In this document: positions 24,615 through 46,531 of the stretch, piece after piece
Layout: every line of letters begins with the position of its first letter
How positions within the stretch are numbered: position 1 is the stretch's first letter
NCBI GenBank assembly: GCA_029856155.1
Contig: JAHQWL010000026.1
Span: forward strand, 1-52,545
Direction: 5' to 3'
Length of the DNA: 52,545 nt
Origin: Promethearchaeia archaeon
GTDB taxonomy: Archaea > Asgardarchaeota > Lokiarchaeia > Sigyniarchaeales > SOKP01
Position numbers and translations under genes: made by a program
The notes under the pieces: model-generated
Database searches by the model: none
What the model was told of the DNA's origin: nothing
Seen by the model: the letters and a program-made list of their open reading frames with translations, nothing else

Positions 24615-25166
24615 GTGCCCAAAAATCGAGATGAGTTTACAAGAATGCCACAAAAGTTTATACTGAAAATATTAACCGCAGGTGAAGGTGGCGTTGGAAA
24701 AACCACACTTTTACATAGGTACGTAGAAGGTAAATTTTCAGCTGAGACAAAAATGACAATCGGTGTTGAGTTTTTTTTGAAAGAAACAGAAATAGATTCC
24801 AAACAGTGCACATTGCAACTCTGGGATTTTGGAGGGCAAGAACGATTTCGCTTTTTGCTTGAAAGTTATGTTTTAGGCGCAAAAGGCGCACTACTCATGT
24901 TTGACCTCACTCGCATAACCACTTTGGAGAATTTGCAACAATGGATCAATATTGTACGTAAAGGTGCCCCAAATCTTCCCGTTCTCTTTTTAGGTACAAA
25001 ATTGGATTTAGGTGATGAGATTATGGTTGATGACGATTATGCAATGTCATTTCTAAACGAATTTAATTTATTTGATTTTATGAAAATCTCTTCAAAGACA
25101 GGCGAAAATGTTGCAGAAGCTTTTAATCTTTTAACAAGAAAAATATTAGAGCGTCAAGCCTATTGA
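24615..25166 (+). CDS. Rab-like small GTPase (start may be ATG 24645)
   Basis: GEGGVGKT, TIGVEF, WDFGGQERF, TKLD, SSKTG. Confidence 0.92.
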   Translation: MPKNRDEFTRMPQKFILKILTAGEGGVGKTTLLHRYVEGKFSAETKMTIGVEFFLKETEIDSKQCTLQLWDFGGQERFRFLLESYVLGAKGALLMFDLTRITTLENLQQWINIVRKGAPNLPVLFLGTKLDLGDEIMVDDDYAMSFLNEFNLFDFMKISSKTGENVAEAFNLLTRKILERQAY

Positions 25167-25606: not shown

Positions 25607-25750
25607 AAGTATGAAATAGTCTATTTTTTTTAATATAATACTGTGATCTAGAATTTATTTAAGATTATTTTAAAACTATTGAATAATTATTACTTTTTAG
25701 AATATAATCGTAATTATCAACTTTAGTAAGAATTCAAGTAGAGACTCCAT

Positions 25751-26281
25751 ATGTTTAAGAACAAGGAATTCAAGCCGATTTTGCTGAAAGTCATTATAGG
25801 TGGTGATGGTGGTGTAGGAAAGACCACCCTCCTGCACAGATACATTGAAAGTGTTTTTCTCGCTGATACTCACCTAACTATAGGAGTAGAATTTTTCCTG
25901 AAAGAGATTCAAATTGATGAGACAAAAATTTTACTTCAAGTTTGGGATTTTGGTGGTCAAGAGCGCTTTAGACCTCTATTAATAAGTTATGCAACTGGAG
26001 CAAGAGGAGCATTATTGCTATTTGATCTAACTAGACCATCAAGTTTAAATCGAATTGACCAATGGGTAAATATTTGTAGGCAAAATAATCAAGATATTCC
26101 AATATTATTATTAGGGTCAAAGTTAGATTTAATTGATGCTATTACGATTGATGATGATTTTGCTACTAAATTTATAGATGAATATAACTTTTTCAATTAT
26201 TTAAAAATATCTTCTAAGACTGGAGAGAACGTAAATTTAGCTTTTGAATTATTAGCTAAAGAACTTATTAAAGACCTATAA
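25751..26281 (+). CDS. Rab-like small GTPase
   Basis: GDGGVGKT, TIGVEF, WDFGGQERF, SKLD, SSKTG. Confidence 0.92.
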   Translation: MFKNKEFKPILLKVIIGGDGGVGKTTLLHRYIESVFLADTHLTIGVEFFLKEIQIDETKILLQVWDFGGQERFRPLLISYATGARGALLLFDLTRPSSLNRIDQWVNICRQNNQDIPILLLGSKLDLIDAITIDDDFATKFIDEYNFFNYLKISSKTGENVNLAFELLAKELIKDL

Positions 26282-30376: not shown

Positions 30377-30504
30377 TAAAAAAAAATGTGCCATTGTGAA
30401 TATCGTACATTTGTTTTCCAAAAATTAAAAAGTTAATGCACTTTTTCCCTAGTATAATCAATTACTTTAAAAATATTAAACATAAATAAGGGGGTTAAAA
30501 AGTT

Positions 30505-31788
30505 ATGCCAAAGTTTATAGATCAAGTAATTAATGACGAGATTTTAGATAAATTAAGTCTTAAAAATCGATATAATTTCATAAACAATAATTTAATGGCA
30601 ATTTTGACGCCAGAACAGTTTAATTTCTTCAAAAGTGTTCAAAAATTTTGTATGAGGTTCGAAAAGAAAAATGGGATTACTCATGGTCCTGAAGAAGATG
30701 TATATGATTGGATTCCCACCTTTGGGGCAGAAGGGTATGTTACAAGGGCACATAATTTTGAAATGGTCGATGTTAATTATGAATATTATGGAGCTGTAGC
30801 AGATCTCCTTAGGACTCTAGCTCTAGACAGCTTTGATACACAATTTGGGATGGCTATTGGTGCTACAGTATTAGCGGTTAATCCCATTTACGAACATCAT
30901 GAAAATATTCCTATTCGATTAGAAGCATTAAAAAGTCTTGTTATAGGCGAAGAATCAGGATGTATTTGTATAACAGAACCAGAAAGAGGCTCAGATGCGG
31001 TTCATATGTTAACCACCTGCGATGAGCAGGAGGACGGTTCTTTTATTCTCAATGGAGAAAAAGTGTTCAATACGAATGCACCTAAATCAAAATGGGTGAT
31101 TGCATATGCGACTGCTGAAAAAAATAATGGTAACACGATGGCCCAATTCTTAATAGATGCCAAATGGGACGGATTTACAGTTGAGCGTGTAGGAATACCT
31201 TGGGTACCAAAACTCTACTTAGGTCACGAGTGGTTTGAAAATCTCAGAGTGCCAAAAGAATATGTACTTGGTGGAATTGGGAAAGGAAGAGAACATCTCT
31301 TTGAGGGGTTAATACCCGAACGGATTGGTATTGCTTATGGTGCTATTTCCCAGTGTTGGGGGGCTGTGTCTCACGCTGCTATATATGCCAACATGAGAAA
31401 ACAATTTAATCAAGAGGTCTTAAAATTCCAAGGGGTCGGATTCCTATTAACAGATTTGTGGGCAAAAACTACAAATTTGACACTTGGTTTGCTAAAATTC
31501 TGCGAAGAGTATGATAAGAAGATGGAAAAATTCGAACATAATATTCCCGCAAATATTAGCAGAGCTATGGTCGCCTCGGCAAGTCAACTTAAATATCATT
31601 GCACAAATCTGTCCAAGGAGGTGTGCTATGAAGCAGCTAACCTTATGGGGGGTGCTGGGTTATCAGATAACACTTTAATGCATGATTATGTGAATATTTC
31701 ACGAATACAAGAAATAGTTGGAGGAAGCCGCCAAATTCAGCAATATATTATGTCTATGGCGTTACGCCAACTCTTTAAGATGCTCTAA
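30505..31788 (+). CDS. Acyl-CoA dehydrogenase (paralog 1)
   Basis: ITEPERGSD, LNGEKVFNTN, RKQF, MGGAGL, EIVGGSRQIQ. Confidence 0.92.
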   Translation: MPKFIDQVINDEILDKLSLKNRYNFINNNLMAILTPEQFNFFKSVQKFCMRFEKKNGITHGPEEDVYDWIPTFGAEGYVTRAHNFEMVDVNYEYYGAVADLLRTLALDSFDTQFGMAIGATVLAVNPIYEHHENIPIRLEALKSLVIGEESGCICITEPERGSDAVHMLTTCDEQEDGSFILNGEKVFNTNAPKSKWVIAYATAEKNNGNTMAQFLIDAKWDGFTVERVGIPWVPKLYLGHEWFENLRVPKEYVLGGIGKGREHLFEGLIPERIGIAYGAISQCWGAVSHAAIYANMRKQFNQEVLKFQGVGFLLTDLWAKTTNLTLGLLKFCEEYDKKMEKFEHNIPANISRAMVASASQLKYHCTNLSKEVCYEAANLMGGAGLSDNTLMHDYVNISRIQEIVGGSRQIQQYIMSMALRQLFKML

Positions 31789-34214: not shown

Positions 34215-35519
34215 TTATGTTACTGACATCTTATACAACGTTCTTAAAGAAAGAGACATAATATATTGTTGTATTTGTCTGGACCCACCAAGAATCTCCT
34301 GAATTCTTGAAATGTTCAAGTAATCATGCATTAAAGTATTATCACATAACCCAGCTCCCCCCATAAGATTCGCACATTCATAGCACACCTCCTTGGAAAG
34401 TCCTGTAGATTGGTATTTGAATTGACTCGCTGAAGCAACCATTGCTTGAGTAATATTTTTAGGAATATTTCCTTCAAACTTAATATATTTGTCATCATAA
34501 GCCTCACAGAATTTTAGTAATCCTATAGATAAATTTGTAGTTTTAGCCCAGAGATCTGCGAGTGAAAATCCGACGCCTTGGAATTTTAGTATTTCCTGGT
34601 CAAATTGCTTTCTATTATTGGCATAGATTACAGCATGGGTTAAAGCACCCCAACACTCTGCTAAACTCATCATAGCAATTGCTATTCGTTCTGGAATTAA
34701 CCCTTCAAAAAGATGTTCTCTTCCTTTCCCTACGGGTCCTAAGATACATTCCTTTGGTACTCTGAGATTTTTTAGATATTCTTTTCCAACAAATAATTTA
34801 GGGACCCAAGGTATTCCTACACGCTCAACAGTAAATCCGTCCCAATTCGTATTTATTAAGAATTGCGCCATCAAGGTTCCATTATTCTTTTCAGCTGTCG
34901 CATATGCAATAACCCATTTGGATTTAGGACCGTTTGTATTAAAAATTTTAGTTCCATTTAAGATAAAAGACCCATCTTCCTGCTCATCGCAAGTGGTTAA
35001 TTGGTGGACAGCATCTGAGCCTCGCTCAGGCTCTGTAATAAGAATTGCGCCAGGAGACTTTCCAGTAACTAAATCTTTAAGAGCTTCTAATCGAATAGGA
35101 ATATTTTCATGATGTTCGTAAATGGGATTAACCGCTAATACTGTTGCACCTCCTCCCATGGCGAATTGGGGATCAAACATATCGATTGCTAGATTACGAA
35201 GGAAATCTGCTGCTAAGCCCCAATCTTCATACCCAACATCAACCATATCAAATGAGTGTTGACGTGTAATATATCCTTTTTCTCCAAATTCTGGTATCCA
35301 TTCGTAAATATCTTCATCAGGACCGTGTGTTATATTATGCCTTTTCTCAAAACGTAAACAGAAACGCTCTACTTCCCTTAAAAAATTAAACTCTTTCGTT
35401 GTTAAAATAGCAGTTAAGTTGTTATTAAGAAAGGCATATCGATTTTTTAGATTGAATTTTTCAAGAATTTCGTCATTTATTACTTGTGTTTTAAACCTTC
35501 TTTTTTCCGCCATATTCAA
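34215..35519 (-). CDS. Acyl-CoA dehydrogenase (paralog 2)
   Basis: ITEPERGSD, LNGTKIF, EILGGSRQIQ. Confidence 0.92.
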   Translation of the reverse strand: MNMAEKRRFKTQVINDEILEKFNLKNRYAFLNNNLTAILTTKEFNFLREVERFCLRFEKRHNITHGPDEDIYEWIPEFGEKGYITRQHSFDMVDVGYEDWGLAADFLRNLAIDMFDPQFAMGGGATVLAVNPIYEHHENIPIRLEALKDLVTGKSPGAILITEPERGSDAVHQLTTCDEQEDGSFILNGTKIFNTNGPKSKWVIAYATAEKNNGTLMAQFLINTNWDGFTVERVGIPWVPKLFVGKEYLKNLRVPKECILGPVGKGREHLFEGLIPERIAIAMMSLAECWGALTHAVIYANNRKQFDQEILKFQGVGFSLADLWAKTTNLSIGLLKFCEAYDDKYIKFEGNIPKNITQAMVASASQFKYQSTGLSKEVCYECANLMGGAGLCDNTLMHDYLNISRIQEILGGSRQIQQYIMSLSLRTLYKMSVT

Positions 35520-35706: not shown

Positions 35707-37002
35707 TTGATGAAAATGGATAGAAGATTTGAAACGCAAGTTATTGATGATAAAATTTTAGAAAAACTAAATCTTACCAATAGATATAATTTTCTTAATG
35801 AGAATTTGTCTCTTATTCTTACTGAAAAGCAGTTTACCTTCCTTAAAGAAGTCCAAGACTTCTGTCTAAAATTTGAAACAGAAAATAAAATAACACATGG
35901 TCTCGAAGAAGATGTTTATGAATGGTATCCTATTTTTGGAGAACAAGGATATATAACTCGCCAACATACGTTTGAATGCATTGATTTGAATTATAAGGAG
36001 GTTGGAATGGCTATGGATTTTATGAGAATATTGGCACTTGATTTATTTGATCCTCAATTTGCTATGGGAAGTGGGGCGACTGTCATCTGTATTAACCCGA
36101 TATATGATCATCATGAAAATATTCCAGTACGGCTTGAGGCCTTAAAGGAGTTAGTGACTGGAAAAGCCCCGGGATGTTTATTGATTACTGAACCCGAAAG
36201 AGGCTCTGATGCCGTACATATGTTAACTACATGTGAGGAACAAGATGATGGGAGTTTCATCTTAAATGGAACTAAAATTTTTAACACTAATGCTCCAAAA
36301 TCAAAGTGGGCGGTTGCATATGCGACTGCCGAACAAAATAATGGCAATTTGATGGCACAGTTTCTTATCAACACATCTTGGGAAGGATGGAATTGTAAAC
36401 GTGTTGGAATATCATGGGTCCCGAAATTACATTTAGGAAAAGAAAAATTAGAAAACTTGAGAGTACCAAAAGAATACGTACTTGGTGGAATTGGTAAAGG
36501 TAGAGAACACCTTTTTGAAGGATTGGTCCCAGAAAGGATTTCTATTGCTGTCAGAGGTGTAAGTGAATGTTGGGGAGCATTAGCACATGCAATTATTTAT
36601 GCTAATATGAGGAAACAATTTGACAAAGAAATTTTGTTATTTCAAGGAGTTGGATTTACATTGACAGACCTATTGGCCAAAACAACAGCTCTTACTCATG
36701 GTATTTTGAAATTCTGTGAAATCTATGATGAGAAAGTGGAGAAATATGGAAATAAACTGCCAGAAAACATTTCACGTGCATTAGTTGCCTTAGGAAGTCA
36801 ATATAAGTACAATTGTGCTTTACTTTCTAAGAAAGTGTGCTATGAAACTGCTAATTTGATGGGAGGAGCAGGATTGTGTGACAATACATTAATGCAGGAT
36901 TATTTAAATATTTCAAGAATCCAAGAGATAATTGGAGGAAGCAGACAAATTCAGCAATTCATTATGTCAAGAAATTTAAGATATCTCTTTAAAAATCTAT
37001 AA
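35707..37002 (+). CDS. Acyl-CoA dehydrogenase (paralog 3)
   Basis: ITEPERGSD, LNGTKIF, EIIGGSRQIQ. Confidence 0.92.
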   Translation: MMKMDRRFETQVIDDKILEKLNLTNRYNFLNENLSLILTEKQFTFLKEVQDFCLKFETENKITHGLEEDVYEWYPIFGEQGYITRQHTFECIDLNYKEVGMAMDFMRILALDLFDPQFAMGSGATVICINPIYDHHENIPVRLEALKELVTGKAPGCLLITEPERGSDAVHMLTTCEEQDDGSFILNGTKIFNTNAPKSKWAVAYATAEQNNGNLMAQFLINTSWEGWNCKRVGISWVPKLHLGKEKLENLRVPKEYVLGGIGKGREHLFEGLVPERISIAVRGVSECWGALAHAIIYANMRKQFDKEILLFQGVGFTLTDLLAKTTALTHGILKFCEIYDEKVEKYGNKLPENISRALVALGSQYKYNCALLSKKVCYETANLMGGAGLCDNTLMQDYLNISRIQEIIGGSRQIQQFIMSRNLRYLFKNL

Positions 37003-37065: not shown

Positions 37066-37275
37066 TTATTCATTCTCTTCTTCTCCCAATAATGCTTCTA
37101 CTTTATTTTCGAGTTCTTCAATTTTTTGTTCAAGTGCTTCAATTTTTTTATTAGTTTCACATGTAGCACATCCATCATCTTCATCACATTGCGGAAGTGT
37201 GTCACAAACTTCTTGAAGTTCATCCATTTCTTCTAATAACTTATCGACTTCTTCTTGTAGTTCATCAATACTCAA
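37066..37275 (-). CDS. Small acidic coiled-coil protein with a central 4-Cys motif
   Basis: Heptads flank CDTLPQCDEDDGCATC; AGGTG SD-like motif before the TTG. Confidence 0.75.
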   Translation of the reverse strand: MSIDELQEEVDKLLEEMDELQEVCDTLPQCDEDDGCATCETNKKIEALEQKIEELENKVEALLGEEENE

Positions 37276-37397: not shown

Positions 37398-38393
37398 ATG
37401 GTTATTCAAAACGATTTTGCAGAAATACTTAAAAATTTAAGCGATAAAAGTACTTTAGATCGAGCAGAATCAATTTCAAATAATTGTATAAGAATTTTAA
37501 AGATTGATAAAGAAATTGGATTAATTGAAGCAGAGGTACAAGGTAATAAATTAATTCCGTATAAGCTTAATTTTAATATTTCTCAGAAAAACCTTCATGA
37601 TATGATATATCATGATTGTCCTGATTATTTAGCACGAAAGAAGCCAAATAACAGATTTTGTAAGCATATTGTGAAATTTTTCTACATTCTAAATAGTCAA
37701 GATTCAGTATTAGCACACAGACTATTAACAGAATTCAATACAAAAATAATTGAACACACTCAGAGTAATAAAATCGATTTATTAGACATTAATCATTTCA
37801 TAAATAAAGATCTAGAAAAGCAACTAACATTTGATTATAAAGGATTTGATTTCTTTTTTGACCTTTCTGAACTAGATGATTCAGCGAGAAAAATCGTAAA
37901 GGATATTTTAGTAGAAGCAAGGAAGTTACCAGCAGCTTTAAGAGGTTTTCACGGAGGGTATGAAGGTGGTCTATTTGATCATATTCTACTGGTTACAAAT
38001 TATGCCTATAAGTTAAGTAAATCCAAAAATTATCAAGTGGATGTTAAAAAAGCAGTTCTAACAGCAATATATCACGATTTTGGTAAAGTTTCGTATTATT
38101 CTTATAAAAAAAAGGACATTACATCAAAGATTACAGTAGCACGCGAAGAATTAGATAAAATTCATGATGAAATTGTAAGGAAGTTTAATTATAAGGGTAG
38201 ACATTACCATGTTGAAGAAGCATTAGCAGTACTTGGAAAAAATAAGCATGTTCTGTTCTATGATGATGAGATGTATAAAGCAATTATATTCCATCATGGT
38301 CAATGGAGTAAATATCATCCAATAGATATGAATGAGCTAGCGAATTTAGTACATGAGGCAGATATGATTGCTAGCCAAAAACATTTTGTATAA
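37398..38393 (+). CDS. SWIM Zn-finger + HD phosphohydrolase (YhaM-like HD)
   Basis: HDCPD..FCKH; GFHGGYEGGLFDH, YHDFGK, HHG, EAD. Confidence 0.75.
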   Translation: MVIQNDFAEILKNLSDKSTLDRAESISNNCIRILKIDKEIGLIEAEVQGNKLIPYKLNFNISQKNLHDMIYHDCPDYLARKKPNNRFCKHIVKFFYILNSQDSVLAHRLLTEFNTKIIEHTQSNKIDLLDINHFINKDLEKQLTFDYKGFDFFFDLSELDDSARKIVKDILVEARKLPAALRGFHGGYEGGLFDHILLVTNYAYKLSKSKNYQVDVKKAVLTAIYHDFGKVSYYSYKKKDITSKITVAREELDKIHDEIVRKFNYKGRHYHVEEALAVLGKNKHVLFYDDEMYKAIIFHHGQWSKYHPIDMNELANLVHEADMIASQKHFV

Positions 38394-38441: not shown

Positions 38442-39110
38442 TTAAGTTTCTTTTAATGTTTCTATAATCTCAGATATTTCTTCACTCTTACGATATTTTT
38501 TGACTAATTTTTTATAACTTTTAATTGATTTTTTAATTAGTTCCAGAGTTTCATCTGGGAGATCATCTTCGTGAATTTCAAGATCCTGTATCATAAAGTC
38601 TAAACCAATAGTTAATTTATAATCTTGTTCAAAGCTTTTTTTAGTAAATGTTCTTATTAGTGAAGATTTCCCAACTGCAGCGGCCCCGGCAAGTAAAATC
38701 TTAAACCTAAAATGGTTAGAATCTATGATTTCTCCAAGTCTAGGCTTAAAATCGAGTAAAGCTGTAATGGTCAATCTGTAAAATAATTTTTCCACATTTA
38801 TATTTTCTGAAGCAGAAGTTTCGATATATTCAAATAAGTAATATTGATTTACTTTTTGAATGATTTTTTCTCTAGGTATGGTTTCTCCAATATCTTGTTT
38901 TAGATCGTTCTTATTACCAATTAAAAAAATAGGTATATTACCGGAAATGTCTCTGATTTCATTGAAATATTCATCTATTTTATTAAATGTATCAGGGCGA
39001 CTTAAATCAAAAACCAGACCCAATGCAGCAACACCTTTGAAAAAGTCAGTTTTAAAAAAATCAAATCGTTCTTGTCCTCCCGTATCCCATAGTGATAATG
39101 TGATTTTCAT
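38442..39110 (-). CDS. Circularly permuted Rab-like small GTPase (G3-G4-G5-G1-G2)
   Basis: WDTGGQERF, GNKND, ETSAS, then GAAAVGKSS, LTIGLDF; helical tail. Confidence 0.85.
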   Translation of the reverse strand: MKITLSLWDTGGQERFDFFKTDFFKGVAALGLVFDLSRPDTFNKIDEYFNEIRDISGNIPIFLIGNKNDLKQDIGETIPREKIIQKVNQYYLFEYIETSASENINVEKLFYRLTITALLDFKPRLGEIIDSNHFRFKILLAGAAAVGKSSLIRTFTKKSFEQDYKLTIGLDFMIQDLEIHEDDLPDETLELIKKSIKSYKKLVKKYRKSEEISEIIETLKET

Positions 39111-39135
39111 TTTGGTATTAGCCCTCTACTCATTT

Positions 39136-39840
39136 TTATGGTTCCCAAATACCGATATATTCATCAGAAATATTGTAAATTTTATTAAATCCCATTTTTT
39201 TATATAAATCTTTAAGGCTCTGTTTGCTATAATTCCACTGCGATCTTTTTTGGTATGAATTAATACCATCATTGTCTAAAAAGAAGAAATCAACCATTTT
39301 GAATAAAGTTTTCGGCAGATGTTTACCTAAATATATAACGACCTTTAAAATCTTATCTCGGGCAGAAATCTCTTTAGGTTTAACTGTATAAGGTTCACAA
39401 ATTATAATTTTATGTGCGATATTTTTAGCTATATTAATTAAATCAAAATGTTTTGGGTATATATGATGCAAGATATCACTAATAACAATGACATCTTTCT
39501 TCTCCCCCTGATAGTACTTAAAATCAAATATGTTTTTTTGATGTAATATAATTTTCTTTAAAATAATATTTCTCAGTTTAAGTTCCTTATTTTTTATTCG
39601 TTTTAAAAATCGATGATTTAAATCTACACCCTCATATTCTATCATGGGATGTAGAAAACGCATTAAATATCCGGTACCACACGGTAAATCTAAAACTCTT
39701 TTTGGACCCTTTCCAACTAGTAAAGCAATTGTGAGAAATTTTGTATCTTGATTGTATAATCTCCTAGTAATTGCATTATAGAGCCACCCACTACGGTATA
39801 ATAAACTTCTAAAACGGGGGATTTCCATTTGTTTTTGCAT
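39136..39840 (-). CDS. Class I SAM-dependent methyltransferase
   Basis: VLDLPCGTG, GVDLN, DILHHI. Confidence 0.85.
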   Translation of the reverse strand: MQKQMEIPRFRSLLYRSGWLYNAITRRLYNQDTKFLTIALLVGKGPKRVLDLPCGTGYLMRFLHPMIEYEGVDLNHRFLKRIKNKELKLRNIILKKIILHQKNIFDFKYYQGEKKDVIVISDILHHIYPKHFDLINIAKNIAHKIIICEPYTVKPKEISARDKILKVVIYLGKHLPKTLFKMVDFFFLDNDGINSYQKRSQWNYSKQSLKDLYKKMGFNKIYNISDEYIGIWEP

Positions 39841-39872: not shown

Positions 39873-41924
39873 TTAAGGGAGAGAGAGAGAATTCATTTTT
39901 TCCTCAATTGTTTTATTTAAATCTTTAACCTTCTTGTCTAATAACTTAAGTTCTTTATGAATTTCCTCAAATCTACTTTCCTGATCATTTAATTTTTTTA
40001 TGTATCTCTCCTTTAGTGAAATTGATTGACTATCATCGCCTAAAACAGAGATATTCTCTCGTAAACGAGATTGTTCATCAGTCATATTATTTCTCTCTTC
40101 GTCTAATTTTTCTTGTTTAGATCTTAAATCATTTAAAGTTTGAATTAATTCTGCGATTTCTTTTAAACGATTTTCTAGAACTGATTCGATAAATTTCTTT
40201 TTGACGTAAAAACCTACTCTTTTTAATAAATCCTCTTTACTATAATTCCATAAATATATGCTTGAATAATTTTCTCTTTGTTCTTTTATTTTAAAAACAA
40301 TTGCATCCTTTGGTTTTAAAGTGATTTTGAATCGCCAGTAATTAGCAGTTTCTTCTGGCTCTATAGGTTTCTCTATAATCTTGTATTCATAAGTTTTTGG
40401 ATGATCAAGGTAAAGCTCCTTTTCTTCATCAGTTTTATTTTTAATTTTATAGGTGGTCATTAAATTTGTAAAATAATATTCATAAGAGTACCCACTTTTA
40501 AAGGTAACTTTATGTATACTTAAATTCTCAGATTTCTGTTCATGATTAATTATTATAGCCTGTTCTACAGCAAAATTTAATAATCTCGTATCATCTTTAT
40601 TCAAAAAAGGGATAATAGCTTCGCCAGCAAGATTATCATCATAAATAATTGTTACTGGCCCTCTTTCTAGTGTAAGATTAGTGTTGTTTGTAATTTCCAG
40701 GCAAGCATTAGGGTTTTGATCATTTTCATTTTTGTTATAGAGTAAAATTCTCTTTGCTTTAATCGATTCAGTAAGTATTGGAACTAAAGCAGATTGCATT
40801 CGTTTAATTGTTACTGGGTTCGAAATATTATATTCAAATAATTCTCCCAAATCTTTTGTTTGAGTTTTGACTTGAGATTTCACCTTATCATAAACCTCTG
40901 TATCAGACATAATACCTTGCATACGCCCAAATCCACCAGCTCCACCGGGAGCAGGAGGTGGGCGAACTCCTATAGTTGAGGCTATAGCTCTTTTCTTCAT
41001 TGCCTTTGGTTTTGCTTCCATTTCTGCCATAGCAAAATCCTCAAATTTTTCCATTTCCAATCCTTCTTCAATTTCTGTGGGCCTAGCGCTTAAAACTTTC
41101 GGTGGTTGAATTATTGGTCGTTGGATGAAAATAGGTCGATAAAATTCATAAATGAATGAAACTGGCATACCAGCTACTAAAGATAATTCAATATCGTCCC
41201 AATCTTGATTAGTGGTATTTTCAATAAGACTCCACCCCGAAAGTAAGCATTTTTGCTCTAAAGCTTGTTGTTTGCTCATAATTAAACGGTAAGAAGTTTT
41301 CCAGATAGGACTTTCACGAATATACGACACGAAAATGTTTCTTTCAACTTCATCTTCTCCTCCAGACTCACAATTTATTATTATTTTTTTAGCATCTTTC
41401 TTCTTTCCAGCTATAACTGTATCCAAGAAGAATTTCAAATCCTTTTTGATTTCTTCATTTATAATTTCTAAAGAACGAATTTCTGTGAAGTTATATTTAG
41501 TTATTGTACCATCATCTTGATGCAGTATTAATAATTTTTCAGTAATCTTCTCATCTTTAGTCAATTTTTCTGTATATTCGATTCCCATTATTTTCCCCGA
41601 AATTTTCTTTGCACCCCCTACGATTAAAAAAACGTCAGCTCCTTTTATTTGCGTTACTAGGGAAGAAAAAGAATCTCTATCAGGAATGTTTAACATTATG
41701 GATTTTAGTAATTGGTCAGTATCTAATGCTGCATCGTAAGAAATCGAGGATATATACCCTTTCTTGCTTGTATCTAAAACAAAAAGTGATTTTAATACAT
41801 CATTCATCTCATCAATCTTAAACTCAATTTCAAATTTTCCTGAGCTCTTTAAGGTACCCTCAAGAATGTAATAAGATACTCCGTGCTTAAATATAATTAC
41901 TCTTTTTACTTTTAATTTTGACAT
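39873..41924 (-). CDS. DUF4139-family protein with C-terminal coiled coil
   Basis: VIIFKHGV, MNDVLKSL, PIWKTSYR, ENTTNQDW..LSLVAG, GELFEY. Confidence 0.75.
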   Translation of the reverse strand: MSKLKVKRVIIFKHGVSYYILEGTLKSSGKFEIEFKIDEMNDVLKSLFVLDTSKKGYISSISYDAALDTDQLLKSIMLNIPDRDSFSSLVTQIKGADVFLIVGGAKKISGKIMGIEYTEKLTKDEKITEKLLILHQDDGTITKYNFTEIRSLEIINEEIKKDLKFFLDTVIAGKKKDAKKIIINCESGGEDEVERNIFVSYIRESPIWKTSYRLIMSKQQALEQKCLLSGWSLIENTTNQDWDDIELSLVAGMPVSFIYEFYRPIFIQRPIIQPPKVLSARPTEIEEGLEMEKFEDFAMAEMEAKPKAMKKRAIASTIGVRPPPAPGGAGGFGRMQGIMSDTEVYDKVKSQVKTQTKDLGELFEYNISNPVTIKRMQSALVPILTESIKAKRILLYNKNENDQNPNACLEITNNTNLTLERGPVTIIYDDNLAGEAIIPFLNKDDTRLLNFAVEQAIIINHEQKSENLSIHKVTFKSGYSYEYYFTNLMTTYKIKNKTDEEKELYLDHPKTYEYKIIEKPIEPEETANYWRFKITLKPKDAIVFKIKEQRENYSSIYLWNYSKEDLLKRVGFYVKKKFIESVLENRLKEIAELIQTLNDLRSKQEKLDEERNNMTDEQSRLRENISVLGDDSQSISLKERYIKKLNDQESRFEEIHKELKLLDKKVKDLNKTIEEKMNSLSLP

Positions 41925-45136: not shown

Positions 45137-45673
45137 TTAGTTTGTTGTTCGTGAATCTCTGTTTTTAAGAATTAATTTTGTCAGTAAGTTAAAAATTTTA
45201 TGAACATTCTCACCAGTTTTAGAACTACACTCGATAAATCCATCTGCACCCTTATTCATCGCTAAGTCCATAGCTTTTTTTGTAGAAACTTCTTTAAGAT
45301 GCATTAAATCAGTCTTTCCCCCCACAAACACGATCGGTAATTTATAGTTGATTTCTTTATCAAGAATTTCAAACCAATCATCTACATGAGCAAGTGAGCC
45401 ATAATTTGTAATATCATACATAAAGATTGCTCCATTAGCACCTCTAATATAAGATGGAAAAAGGAATCTAAATCTCTCTTCACCTGCAAAATCCCAAATC
45501 TGGAGTTTTACCATCTCTCCATCTAATTCAATAGCTTTTAGGTGAAAATCTACACCAAGAGTCATTGTTATATCGTCTTTAAATAAATTCGTTAAGAATC
45601 TATGAGTTAACGTAGTTTTACCAGTTTGTGAATCTCCAAAGATTACTATCTTGAATGTGGAAGTGTAGGACAA
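45137..45673 (-). CDS. Rab-like small GTPase
   Basis: GDSQTGKT, TLGVDF, WDFAGEERF, GKTD, CSSKTG. Confidence 0.92.
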   Translation of the reverse strand: MSYTSTFKIVIFGDSQTGKTTLTHRFLTNLFKDDITMTLGVDFHLKAIELDGEMVKLQIWDFAGEERFRFLFPSYIRGANGAIFMYDITNYGSLAHVDDWFEILDKEINYKLPIVFVGGKTDLMHLKEVSTKKAMDLAMNKGADGFIECSSKTGENVHKIFNLLTKLILKNRDSRTTN

Positions 45674-46531
45674 CCCAAATACCCAAAAATTTTAATTAGT
45701 ATACCTAATTCCTTAGGTTTTTATCTGGTGTTATGTATAAATATAATTTCAGACTATAAAAATTTTACATTAAATTCAAATTTCTAAGAATTTCTAACGA
45801 ATTTAATCATAATTTTCTAAATAGTCGTAATTTACTCAATAGGTTGGATTAGCTTTCTTAGTAAAAATTTGGCTCCTTCCTCATCTAAAAGTTTAATAAA
45901 CAAATATTCTCTCAATATAAAAATTTGAAAATATTAAAATTATGATAAAAATGGGTTTACAAGAACAGACCCATACAAAAAAAAGGGAATCTTATGAAAA
46001 CAATTGAATATGCCATTAAAACTTCAAAAATGTCGTCAATAATCCAGCATCATAAAGATGCTATTAATGCAATGATGTATAGATTTATAACAAATACTGT
46101 AGGAGGTGCGATTCCATTGTTCACTAAAAGCATTATTCGCTTTAATAATGTGAGCGTAGGAATAGTCATTGAATTATTCTCTGAATTGAGATAATAAAAT
46201 GATAAAGGAGGGTGTCTCTATGTTTTCAATAACCTATTATGTAAACCTGCACCTCATACTGCTACAAAGACGGTATTACACCGTCCCCAATTTTTATTCG
46301 ACTTATAAATTTAGTTATTTAGATGAAAATCAAGATCTTCGAAGGTTTCGGGAGCTTGTGTTAATTTTATTCTTATTTGCCAAAAGGATAGATTTTCTTG
46401 CATTATAATCTAATAAAACCTGTAAAAATCTTTGAACTGAATTTAGAATTAATATTTATTCTATAATTTATTATAAAAAGCCAAATATTTGTGTCCTACT
46501 AGCAGATTTTAATATAAAAAAATTAGATCTT

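Follow-up and report, generated by a model that had tools for sequence, protein, structure and literature searches.

Among the GTPases whose G domains are known to be circularly permuted, the closest in layout to the archaeal protein described here is cpRAS, which was defined by Elias and Novotny (2008, Biol Direct 3:21, PMC2430557) as having the motif order G3-G4-G5-G1-G2. Their paper corrected an earlier claim that a break in the beta2-beta3 turn should prevent folding, and it described cpRAS as a eukaryote-specific member of the RAS family, with a TIE G2 motif, that resides within host proteins of 840-3900 aa carrying VWA or alpha-2-macroglobulin-like domains (PMC2430557). The initial annotation of the archaeal gene had assigned the order G4-G5-G1-G2-G3 to cpRAS, and this has to be replaced by the published order. 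Since cpRAS has the same motif order as the archaeal protein, the type of permutation is not in itself new.

The order G4-G5-G1-G2-G3, with the chain cut between beta3 and alpha2, belongs to the YRG GTPases, YlqF (RbgA), YjeQ (RsgA) and YqeH, which are also naturally permuted and which are universal ribosome-assembly factors with RNA-binding domains, whereas in the archaeal protein G3 comes first. Its scores against profiles of that group lie far below the cut-offs (NCBIfam YqeH, 21 bits against 297; Pfam RsgA_GTPase, 13.7 against 30). A functional analogy can be drawn with Arf and Sar1, in which an amphipathic helix located by the interswitch could link nucleotide state to the membrane, but there the helix is N-terminal, preceding beta1, and the hairpin is intact.

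The gene was found in a 52,545-nucleotide stretch of DNA from a Promethearchaeia archaeon, which is referred to below as the window. It is encoded on the minus strand, in the following setting:

39873..41924, minus strand: 683-aa protein with a C-terminal coiled coil, first gene of a co-directional trio; DUF4139-like by language-model features only
39136..39840, minus strand: SAM-methyltransferase-like gene, directly upstream and co-directional (Pfam Methyltransf_12/31/25)
39122..39126, minus strand: GAGGG Shine-Dalgarno-like site, 11 nt before the ATG (read from the sequence)
38442..39110, minus strand: whole coding sequence of the permuted GTPase, 222 aa plus stop (ORF call; Pfam Ras, E 7e-36)
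ending at 38393: convergent HD-domain ORF downstream, 48 nt from the GTPase coding sequence

The adjoining genes end 25 nt upstream (39136) and 48 nt downstream (38393), both distances agreeing with those first given. The accompanying argument, that missing halves of a GTPase do not fit into this space, is strengthened by the open frame around the 222-aa coding sequence, which extends from stop to stop over 227 codons. Because stop codons bound so short a frame, with only 5 codons upstream of the start, there is no missing in-frame piece upstream, and a translation start at beta3 is supported by the GAGGG site.

The permuted GTPase is the last gene of the trio, and this arrangement is kept in three genera and not in three others. 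Of 301 genomes, 89 encode the 683-aa protein, among them 26 of the 28 genomes of genus g4, where the probe for the GTPase described below matched one genome in 42. Since it occurs far more widely than the GTPase, the link between the two is weak and no functional partnership is claimed. A 919-aa upstream gene in another genus, considered as a possible counterpart, proved to be unrelated.

Motif order and predicted fold

Each of the five GTPase motifs occurs once, in the order G3-G4-G5-G1-G2 that had originally been read from the ORF, and the same order results from motif reading, Pfam, a profile of our own and an alignment with human Rab30. G3 is WDTGGQ (residues 8-13), G4 is NKND (66-69), G5 is TSA (98-100), G1 is GAAAVGKS (142-149) and G2 is Thr167 within LTIGLDF. 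The protein thus departs from the canonical order, G1-G2-G3-G4-G5, by which the Ras superfamily is recognised. The Pfam Ras profile (PF00071) matches with 123.7 bits against a cut-off of 21.6 (E 7e-36), compared with 29.9 bits for Pfam Arf, and it does so in two stretches of swapped order, the one listed extending over residues 2-114 (profile positions 47-157). With the profile built from canonical domains, residues 134-216 correspond to positions 4-55 and residues 1-128 to positions 54-168, while in the Rab30 alignment residues 130-181 correspond to Rab30 21-72 and residues 2-116 to Rab30 74-186. As the two halves align to Rab30 21-72 and 74-186, the chain is cut in the beta2/beta3 turn and essentially nothing has been lost, in line with the proposal that a single Rab-like G domain was broken in its beta2-beta3 hairpin. 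The parts of the protein, all on the minus strand, are distributed as follows:

38754..39110, minus strand: beta3 to alpha5 (switch II, G3, G4, G5), the usual C-terminal two thirds, residues 1-119 (Rab30 74-186; RhoA/Rab superposition)
39072..39086, minus strand: G3 DTGGQ, residues 9-13, including the catalytic-type Gln13 (conservation, 41 sequences)
38904..38915, minus strand: G4 NKND, residues 66-69 (K67 and D69 invariant, N66 nearly so)
38811..38819, minus strand: G5 TSA, residues 98-100 (S99 and A100 invariant)
38706..38753, minus strand: linker from alpha5 to beta1, residues 120-135, with the family signature PRLGE...F(R)F (conservation)
38568..38705, minus strand: beta1, P-loop, alpha1, switch I and beta2, the usual N-terminal third, residues 136-181 (Rab30 21-72; permuted-GTPase superposition)
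38664..38687, minus strand: G1 P-loop GAAAVGKS, residues 142-149 (G142, V146, G147 and K148 invariant)
38574..38636, minus strand: switch I with G2 Thr167, and beta2, residues 159-179 (Y164, T167 and D171 invariant)
38445..38567, minus strand: acidic turn with Pro185 followed by a long helix, residues 182-222, without a transmembrane segment (AlphaFold model, tail analysis)

The linker which joins alpha5 to beta1 is conserved and 12-16 residues long. Its family signature is PRLGE followed by F(R)FK, within which G126 is invariant throughout the family (41 sequences) and R124, G126, E127, D130 and R135 are invariant among close members.

Each half of the protein shows its relationship to Rab proteins. 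Among PDB sequences the 60 best matches are Rab proteins without exception, a Thorarchaeota Rab (PDB 7ezb) being one of them, and the nearest clusters defined by language-model features are Asgard small GTPases. Canonical Rab-like GTPases (Rab30, Rab35, Rab11 and the Thorarchaeota Rab) are the best matches for each half and have the same predicted fold as well as Rab-type switch and interswitch motifs, TIGLDF and WDTGGQERF aligning with their counterparts in Rab30 and Rab35. The archaeal protein differs from them in that its halves are swapped and that it lacks the C-terminal cysteine motif required for geranylgeranylation, there being no cysteine among its 222 residues. Apart from the Ras-type G domain, it contains no Pfam domain.

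Structure prediction and superposition on the Rab fold, proposed at the outset as a check, led to a model with a compact G domain. When AlphaFold2 was supplied with 22 close homologs the result was mediocre (pLDDT 71), and with 41 more diverse family sequences it reached pLDDT 83.5 and pTM 0.80, the five models falling within one pLDDT unit. The predicted structure is a six-stranded alpha/beta G-domain fold in which beta3, alpha2, beta4, alpha3, beta5, alpha4, beta6, alpha5, a short linker strand, beta1, alpha1, beta2 and a helix at residues 186-221 follow one another along the chain. Only switch II (block 11-20) and switch I (159-169) are modelled with low confidence, the latter constituting the sole long stretch of this kind, and this is expected for both switches in a model that contains no nucleotide; beta2 is predicted with pLDDT 81-91.

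Using VIA-align, canonical Rho and Rab structures cover model residues 1-119/124 (Z 12-13.4, rmsd 1.4-2.0 A), the RhoA/Rab part superposed on residues 1-119 being about 51-180, and the permuted YlqF, Nog2-type pre-60S factors, YqeH and RsgA cover residues 13-178 (Z 11-13, 140-146 residues). Since the two overlapping superpositions together span residues 1-178, every element of the G domain would occupy its usual spatial position in the model. Foldseek, which aligns sequentially, yielded about 122 aligned columns against the PDB, and the second piece was covered only with VIA-align. A separate prediction for two copies of the chain gave a homodimer score of 0.00, which speaks neither for nor against a dimer.

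Conservation, distribution and origin of the family

More than 120 full-length homologs, with 73-94% identity, are present in independent assemblies from several data sources. To follow the permutation itself, a junction probe was employed comprising residues 92-181, that is, beta6, alpha5, the linker, beta1, alpha1 and beta2, and it found full-length matches in 67 of 400 representative Asgard genomes, so that homologs sharing the motif order, for which a search had been advised, are clearly available. Purifying selection was evident in the dN/dS test suggested at the same time, the pairwise values being 0.06-0.28 over the full coding sequence, 0.03-0.27 within the G domain and mostly higher in the tail; for the linker, most of the pairs in which a value was defined gave 0.00-0.27. 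An alignment of 41 family members, with identities down to 40%, showed no variation at G12, Q13, K67, D69, S99, A100, G142, V146, G147, K148, Y164, T167 or D171, and at least 90% of these members retain D9 and N66. The window's own genome encodes about 90 Ras-like ORFs, 73 of them with a full canonical domain, and a single one, present in one copy, is cleanly permuted. The gene is real and conserved, and its nucleotide-binding motifs are intact.

Taxonomy-controlled genome sets, examined with the junction probe, placed the permuted proteins in two taxonomic families of one Asgard order, with full-span matches in the following numbers of genomes:

g1 (the window's genus): 49 of 53 genomes
g3: 5 of 5 genomes
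g6: 4 of 10 genomes
g8: 1 of 1 genome
g9: 1 of 1 genome
g73: 2 of 2 genomes
g11 (second family): 2 of 2 genomes
g79 (second family): 1 of 1 genome
g4: 1 of 42 genomes

All other Asgard families yielded no match to the junction probe (0 of 250 genomes). The four g1 genomes that lack a match are 58-88% complete. The single g4 match may represent contamination, since it sits at the end of a contig and shares 79-82% identity with g1 proteins. Moreover, a more divergent form occurs in genus g5, where it was found by profile search and had been missed by single-protein probes, and the limits of the family are consequently not sharp. These divergent g5 members carry DPPG(D/E) in place of DxxGQ, and hence not every member need hydrolyse GTP. 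A spread over all Asgard archaea, as might be gathered from the source labels Thor-, Odin-, Hod- and Hermodarchaeota attached to close homologs, found no support in the taxonomy-controlled genome set.

When the halves were restored to the canonical order, 20 family members formed one clade (SH-aLRT 97) in a tree that also included 73 canonical domains from the same genome and 49 from a library of unlabelled sequences; the tree derives from a short search over 182 columns, and support is below 80% for 72 of its 139 inner branches. Recovery of one clade after reordering fits a single origin, and the data as a whole fit a permutation that arose once, among the many small-GTPase paralogs of one Asgard (Promethearchaeota) order.

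The sister of the family in this tree consists of one library protein and an ORF of the window's own genome (C68:17852-18688), with SH-aLRT 93. This grouping was not relied on, given that the own-genome member has a degenerate G3 and that the deeper branches are weak.

Tandem duplication of a Rab-like gene followed by trimming, the route put forward in the initial annotation, is a plausible origin, and the raw material for it exists. Three canonical GTPase genes lie in a row on contig C21 of the window's genome, and in another genome of the genus two canonical GTPase genes share one frame and are separated by one TAA and 21 nt, such that a single substitution would fuse them. The later part of the route has left no trace that we could find, in that a search for a half-trimmed intermediate between a tandem and a permuted GTPase revealed none. 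Tandem Ras-Ras proteins were also considered as direct precursors and rejected, because the PRLGE motif is absent from their inter-domain linkers and those read out to their full length resemble eukaryotic gene models.

C-terminal tails and membrane attachment

The charged helical tail recognised in the ORF corresponds in the model to the helix at residues 186-221, and residues 188-208 within it are basic and amphipathic, with a hydrophobic moment of 0.64-0.69 and a net charge of +6 to +9. Three architectures can be distinguished among the relatives. In type A (253-316 aa), the permuted G domain leads into the basic amphipathic helix, which a low-complexity spacer separates from a single C-terminal transmembrane helix. 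In type B (428-755 aa), this G domain is combined with a long disordered linker, a conserved segment some 150 residues in length, for which a Pfam search gave no match, and two transmembrane helices. In the short form (206-226 aa), to which the window copy belongs, the chain stops after the helix.

A strongly hydrophobic, transmembrane C-terminal helix, a feature of most relatives that the initial annotation had missed, is present in 31 of the 46 members examined, and 14 of the 15 members without this anchor belong to the window's genus. The G-domain tree, which is poorly resolved, requires about five changes of anchor gain or loss. Taking these two results together, the anchor is probably ancestral and was lost several times, so that the ancestral form would probably have been membrane-anchored. 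The window copy belongs to a group within its genus which has no anchor and has kept the basic amphipathic helix alone.

The manner of attachment in the anchored relatives differs from that of canonical Rab proteins in that the membrane is reached by a transmembrane helix that follows beta2, and not alpha5. In the Ras fold the beta2/beta3 turn shares a face with the usual N and C termini, and the nucleotide is bound on the other side. The new C-terminus thus leaves from the side that usually faces the membrane and, as a consequence, the membrane orientation of the domain can be preserved.

On this basis we propose that the window protein is a working member of the Ras superfamily of small GTPases, most similar to the Rab-type proteins, and that its chain would run from beta3 through switch II, G4, G5 and alpha5 to the linker, and from there through beta1, the P-loop, alpha1 and switch I to beta2. 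Judging from its motifs it would bind GTP and GDP, probably hydrolyse GTP, and act as a switch at the cytoplasmic face of the membrane. In the anchored form, beta2 would be followed by the juxtamembrane basic amphipathic helix, the low-complexity spacer and the C-terminal transmembrane helix, while the second form would add an extra conserved domain and two transmembrane helices. Because the tether would run on directly from beta2 and switch I, nucleotide-dependent interswitch movement could pass to the juxtamembrane helix. For the anchor-less window copy, a location at the membrane would be a guess.

Competing readings and significance

The account that we favour is that of a functional, Rab-like permuted GTPase which arose once in one Asgard order, most likely independently of cpRAS, and was probably membrane-anchored ancestrally, and taken as a whole we consider it likely to be correct. 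Other readings of the gene and of its history were weighed against it. One is that the ORF is an artefact of assembly or gene calling, produced by the misjoining of neighbouring GTPase genes or by read-through of a tandem pair. Canonical GTPase genes are commonly arranged in tandem here, in some cases in the same frame and only 21 nt apart, and such pairs do give a collinear G3..G5-G1-G2 match once stop codons are ignored. However, ORFs of 206-297 aa with the same conserved linker recur in dozens of independent genomes, including single-contig assemblies; the G-domain region of the orthologs is free of stops, some ending earlier but within the tail; the orthologs start within a few residues of beta3, with the frame open for only 5 codons upstream; and dN/dS is well below 1, also for the linker in most pairs with a defined value. 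With the junction conserved across independent genomes a misjoin is untenable, and the probability of an artefact is negligible. A more interesting alternative is that the family is an archaeal homolog, possibly an ancestor, of cpRAS, such that one permutation event would have preceded the eukaryotes. Like the window protein, cpRAS is broken between beta2 and beta3, has alpha5 joined directly to beta1 and keeps all of the GTPase motifs, so that motif order and broken hairpin are identical, and a 2026 survey (PMC13393502) lists CPRas as a potential component of the last eukaryotic common ancestor. Nevertheless, cpRAS belongs to the RAS family, with its TIE motif, while the window protein has Rab-type TIGLDF (as LTIGLDF) and WDTGGQERF motifs and finds only Rab proteins among its best 60 PDB matches; cpRAS is embedded in proteins of 840-3900 aa, while the archaeal domain is N-terminal in proteins that are small or membrane-anchored, being followed by a basic helix and, in most relatives, by a transmembrane anchor; the PRLGE linker is a conserved feature of the archaeal family and its own with respect to cpRAS; the family was found in one Asgard order and in 0 of 250 genomes of other families; and the nearest feature clusters are Asgard small GTPases. 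We therefore consider common descent improbable. Judging from the motif type and the best matches, the archaeal permutation most likely arose independently of cpRAS.

Two further alternatives concern how the protein works. According to one, the fold has been kept and the switch has not, leaving a nucleotide-bound scaffold or pseudo-GTPase, and this would agree with the alanines at the positions of Ras Gly12 and Gly13 (GAAAVGKS), with the g5 members that lack the G3 glutamine, and with the fact that no GAP, GEF or effector has been identified, the conserved neighbouring genes being uninformative. Yet, within the main clade, purifying selection has preserved Gln13, Thr167, Lys148, Ser149 and the NKxD residues and, to our knowledge, Rab proteins likewise lack a glycine at the equivalent of Ras position 12; the loss of switching seems about as improbable as descent shared with cpRAS. 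The other holds that the hairpin, once opened, allows beta2 to pair with beta3 of a second chain, the active species being a domain-swapped dimer or oligomer. In Ras structures beta2 is an edge strand, and in the window protein switch I and the tail are all that hold it in place; moreover, an Asgard Rag-like GTPase in the PDB is homotetrameric (8yl2). Against this, the monomer model is self-consistent, with beta2 at the confidence given above, and we rate a swapped arrangement as slightly less probable still.

A further step is to regard the permutation as adaptive and not neutral, such that the movement made by beta2 in response to GTP would be relayed mechanically to the helix next to the membrane, roughly as if an Arf-type interswitch toggle acted on a C-terminal anchor. 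This proposal is speculative and we consider it rather unlikely, less so than the alternatives above. If true, it would represent a mode of coupling between GTPase and membrane which has not been described for any Ras-superfamily protein.

A low-sensitivity search of longer proteins for cpRAS or fused forms returned only eukaryotic tandem or EF-hand Rab proteins, and it also missed the known long archaeal forms. No mention of a permuted small GTPase in archaea was found in the literature searched, which included a survey of Asgard GTPases and covered subscription journals incompletely, and within the same limits we found no description of a prokaryotic, stand-alone, Rab-like and ancestrally membrane-anchored protein with the order G3-G4-G5-G1-G2.

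The archaeal family provides a second, and probably independent, natural example of this motif order, the published one being cpRAS, which is contained in huge uncharacterised eukaryotic proteins. Because the archaeal protein is small, stand-alone and conserved, it should be possible to express, assay and crystallise it, and this renders it a tractable subject for studying folding and switching in a G domain whose interswitch hairpin is open. The reach of the finding is limited, as the family was found in one order only. It also shows that the Asgard radiation of small GTPases includes topological rearrangement and transmembrane anchoring, and thus extends beyond the eukaryote-type anchoring by lipids or amphipathic helices.

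Genes flanking the permuted GTPase locus

The locus of the permuted GTPase is flanked by three acyl-CoA dehydrogenase-like paralogs, and such paralogs lie close to the permuted GTPase gene in most of the genera examined, an arrangement that looks like retained synteny. Neighbouring features in the window are as follows.

30499-31785, +, acyl-CoA dehydrogenase-like paralog
34218-35519, -, acyl-CoA dehydrogenase-like paralog
35707-37002, +, acyl-CoA dehydrogenase-like paralog
37066-37275, -, 69-aa ORF, acidic and coiled-coil, containing clustered cysteines (C..C......C..C)
39873-41924, -, gene for a 683-aa protein with a C-terminal coiled coil

The 69-aa ORF is located between an acyl-CoA dehydrogenase-like gene and an HD-domain gene. 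No family was assigned to the 683-aa protein in Pfam or NCBIfam; on the basis of language-model features it groups, at a score of 0.99, with clusters containing DUF4139. Of 301 representative genomes from Asgard archaea, 89 contain a homolog.

Long, divergent and isolated members of the permuted family

The long members of the permuted family (protein P0127:480-724 and loci L042:4974-6299 and L049:61-2184) share a conserved stretch roughly 150 residues long, with the motifs RKTTVFY..QMNP and PGC.CVP and no match in Pfam, which is followed by two transmembrane helices. A divergent branch from another genus (L044:444-2036, L045:1061-2524 and L046:46-1464) shows DPPG(D/E) in place of DxxGQ at G3 and, judging from this motif, its members may lack the usual mode of GTP hydrolysis. 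A further genus yielded a single permuted GTPase match (L030, at G099:C223:4354-4944), with none in 41 of the 42 genomes searched, and since it lies at a short contig's end, with 79-82% identity to proteins of the window's genus, it may reflect contamination of the G099 assembly.

Canonical GTPases and tandem arrangements

Three ordinary small GTPase genes are also present in the window.

24651-25139, +, small GTPase
25712-26254, +, small GTPase
45143-45691, -, small GTPase in canonical order (Pfam Ras, E 5e-46)

Across all contigs of the 4.1 Mb genome to which the window belongs, Ras-like domains are present in about 90 ORFs, and in 73 of these the canonical domain is complete; some of the ORFs occur in runs of adjacent genes, for example three at C21 46388-48395. 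On another contig, a 332-aa ORF (C86:81553-82548, -) carries a partial G-domain match, spanning profile positions 100-166, followed by a full canonical domain, and it may be a leftover of tandem duplication. At L047:997-2091, a locus in another assembly, two canonical Rab-like genes share one reading frame, in which a single TAA and 21 nt lie between them, such that a single substitution would suffice, from the sequence, to generate a tandem-domain fusion protein.
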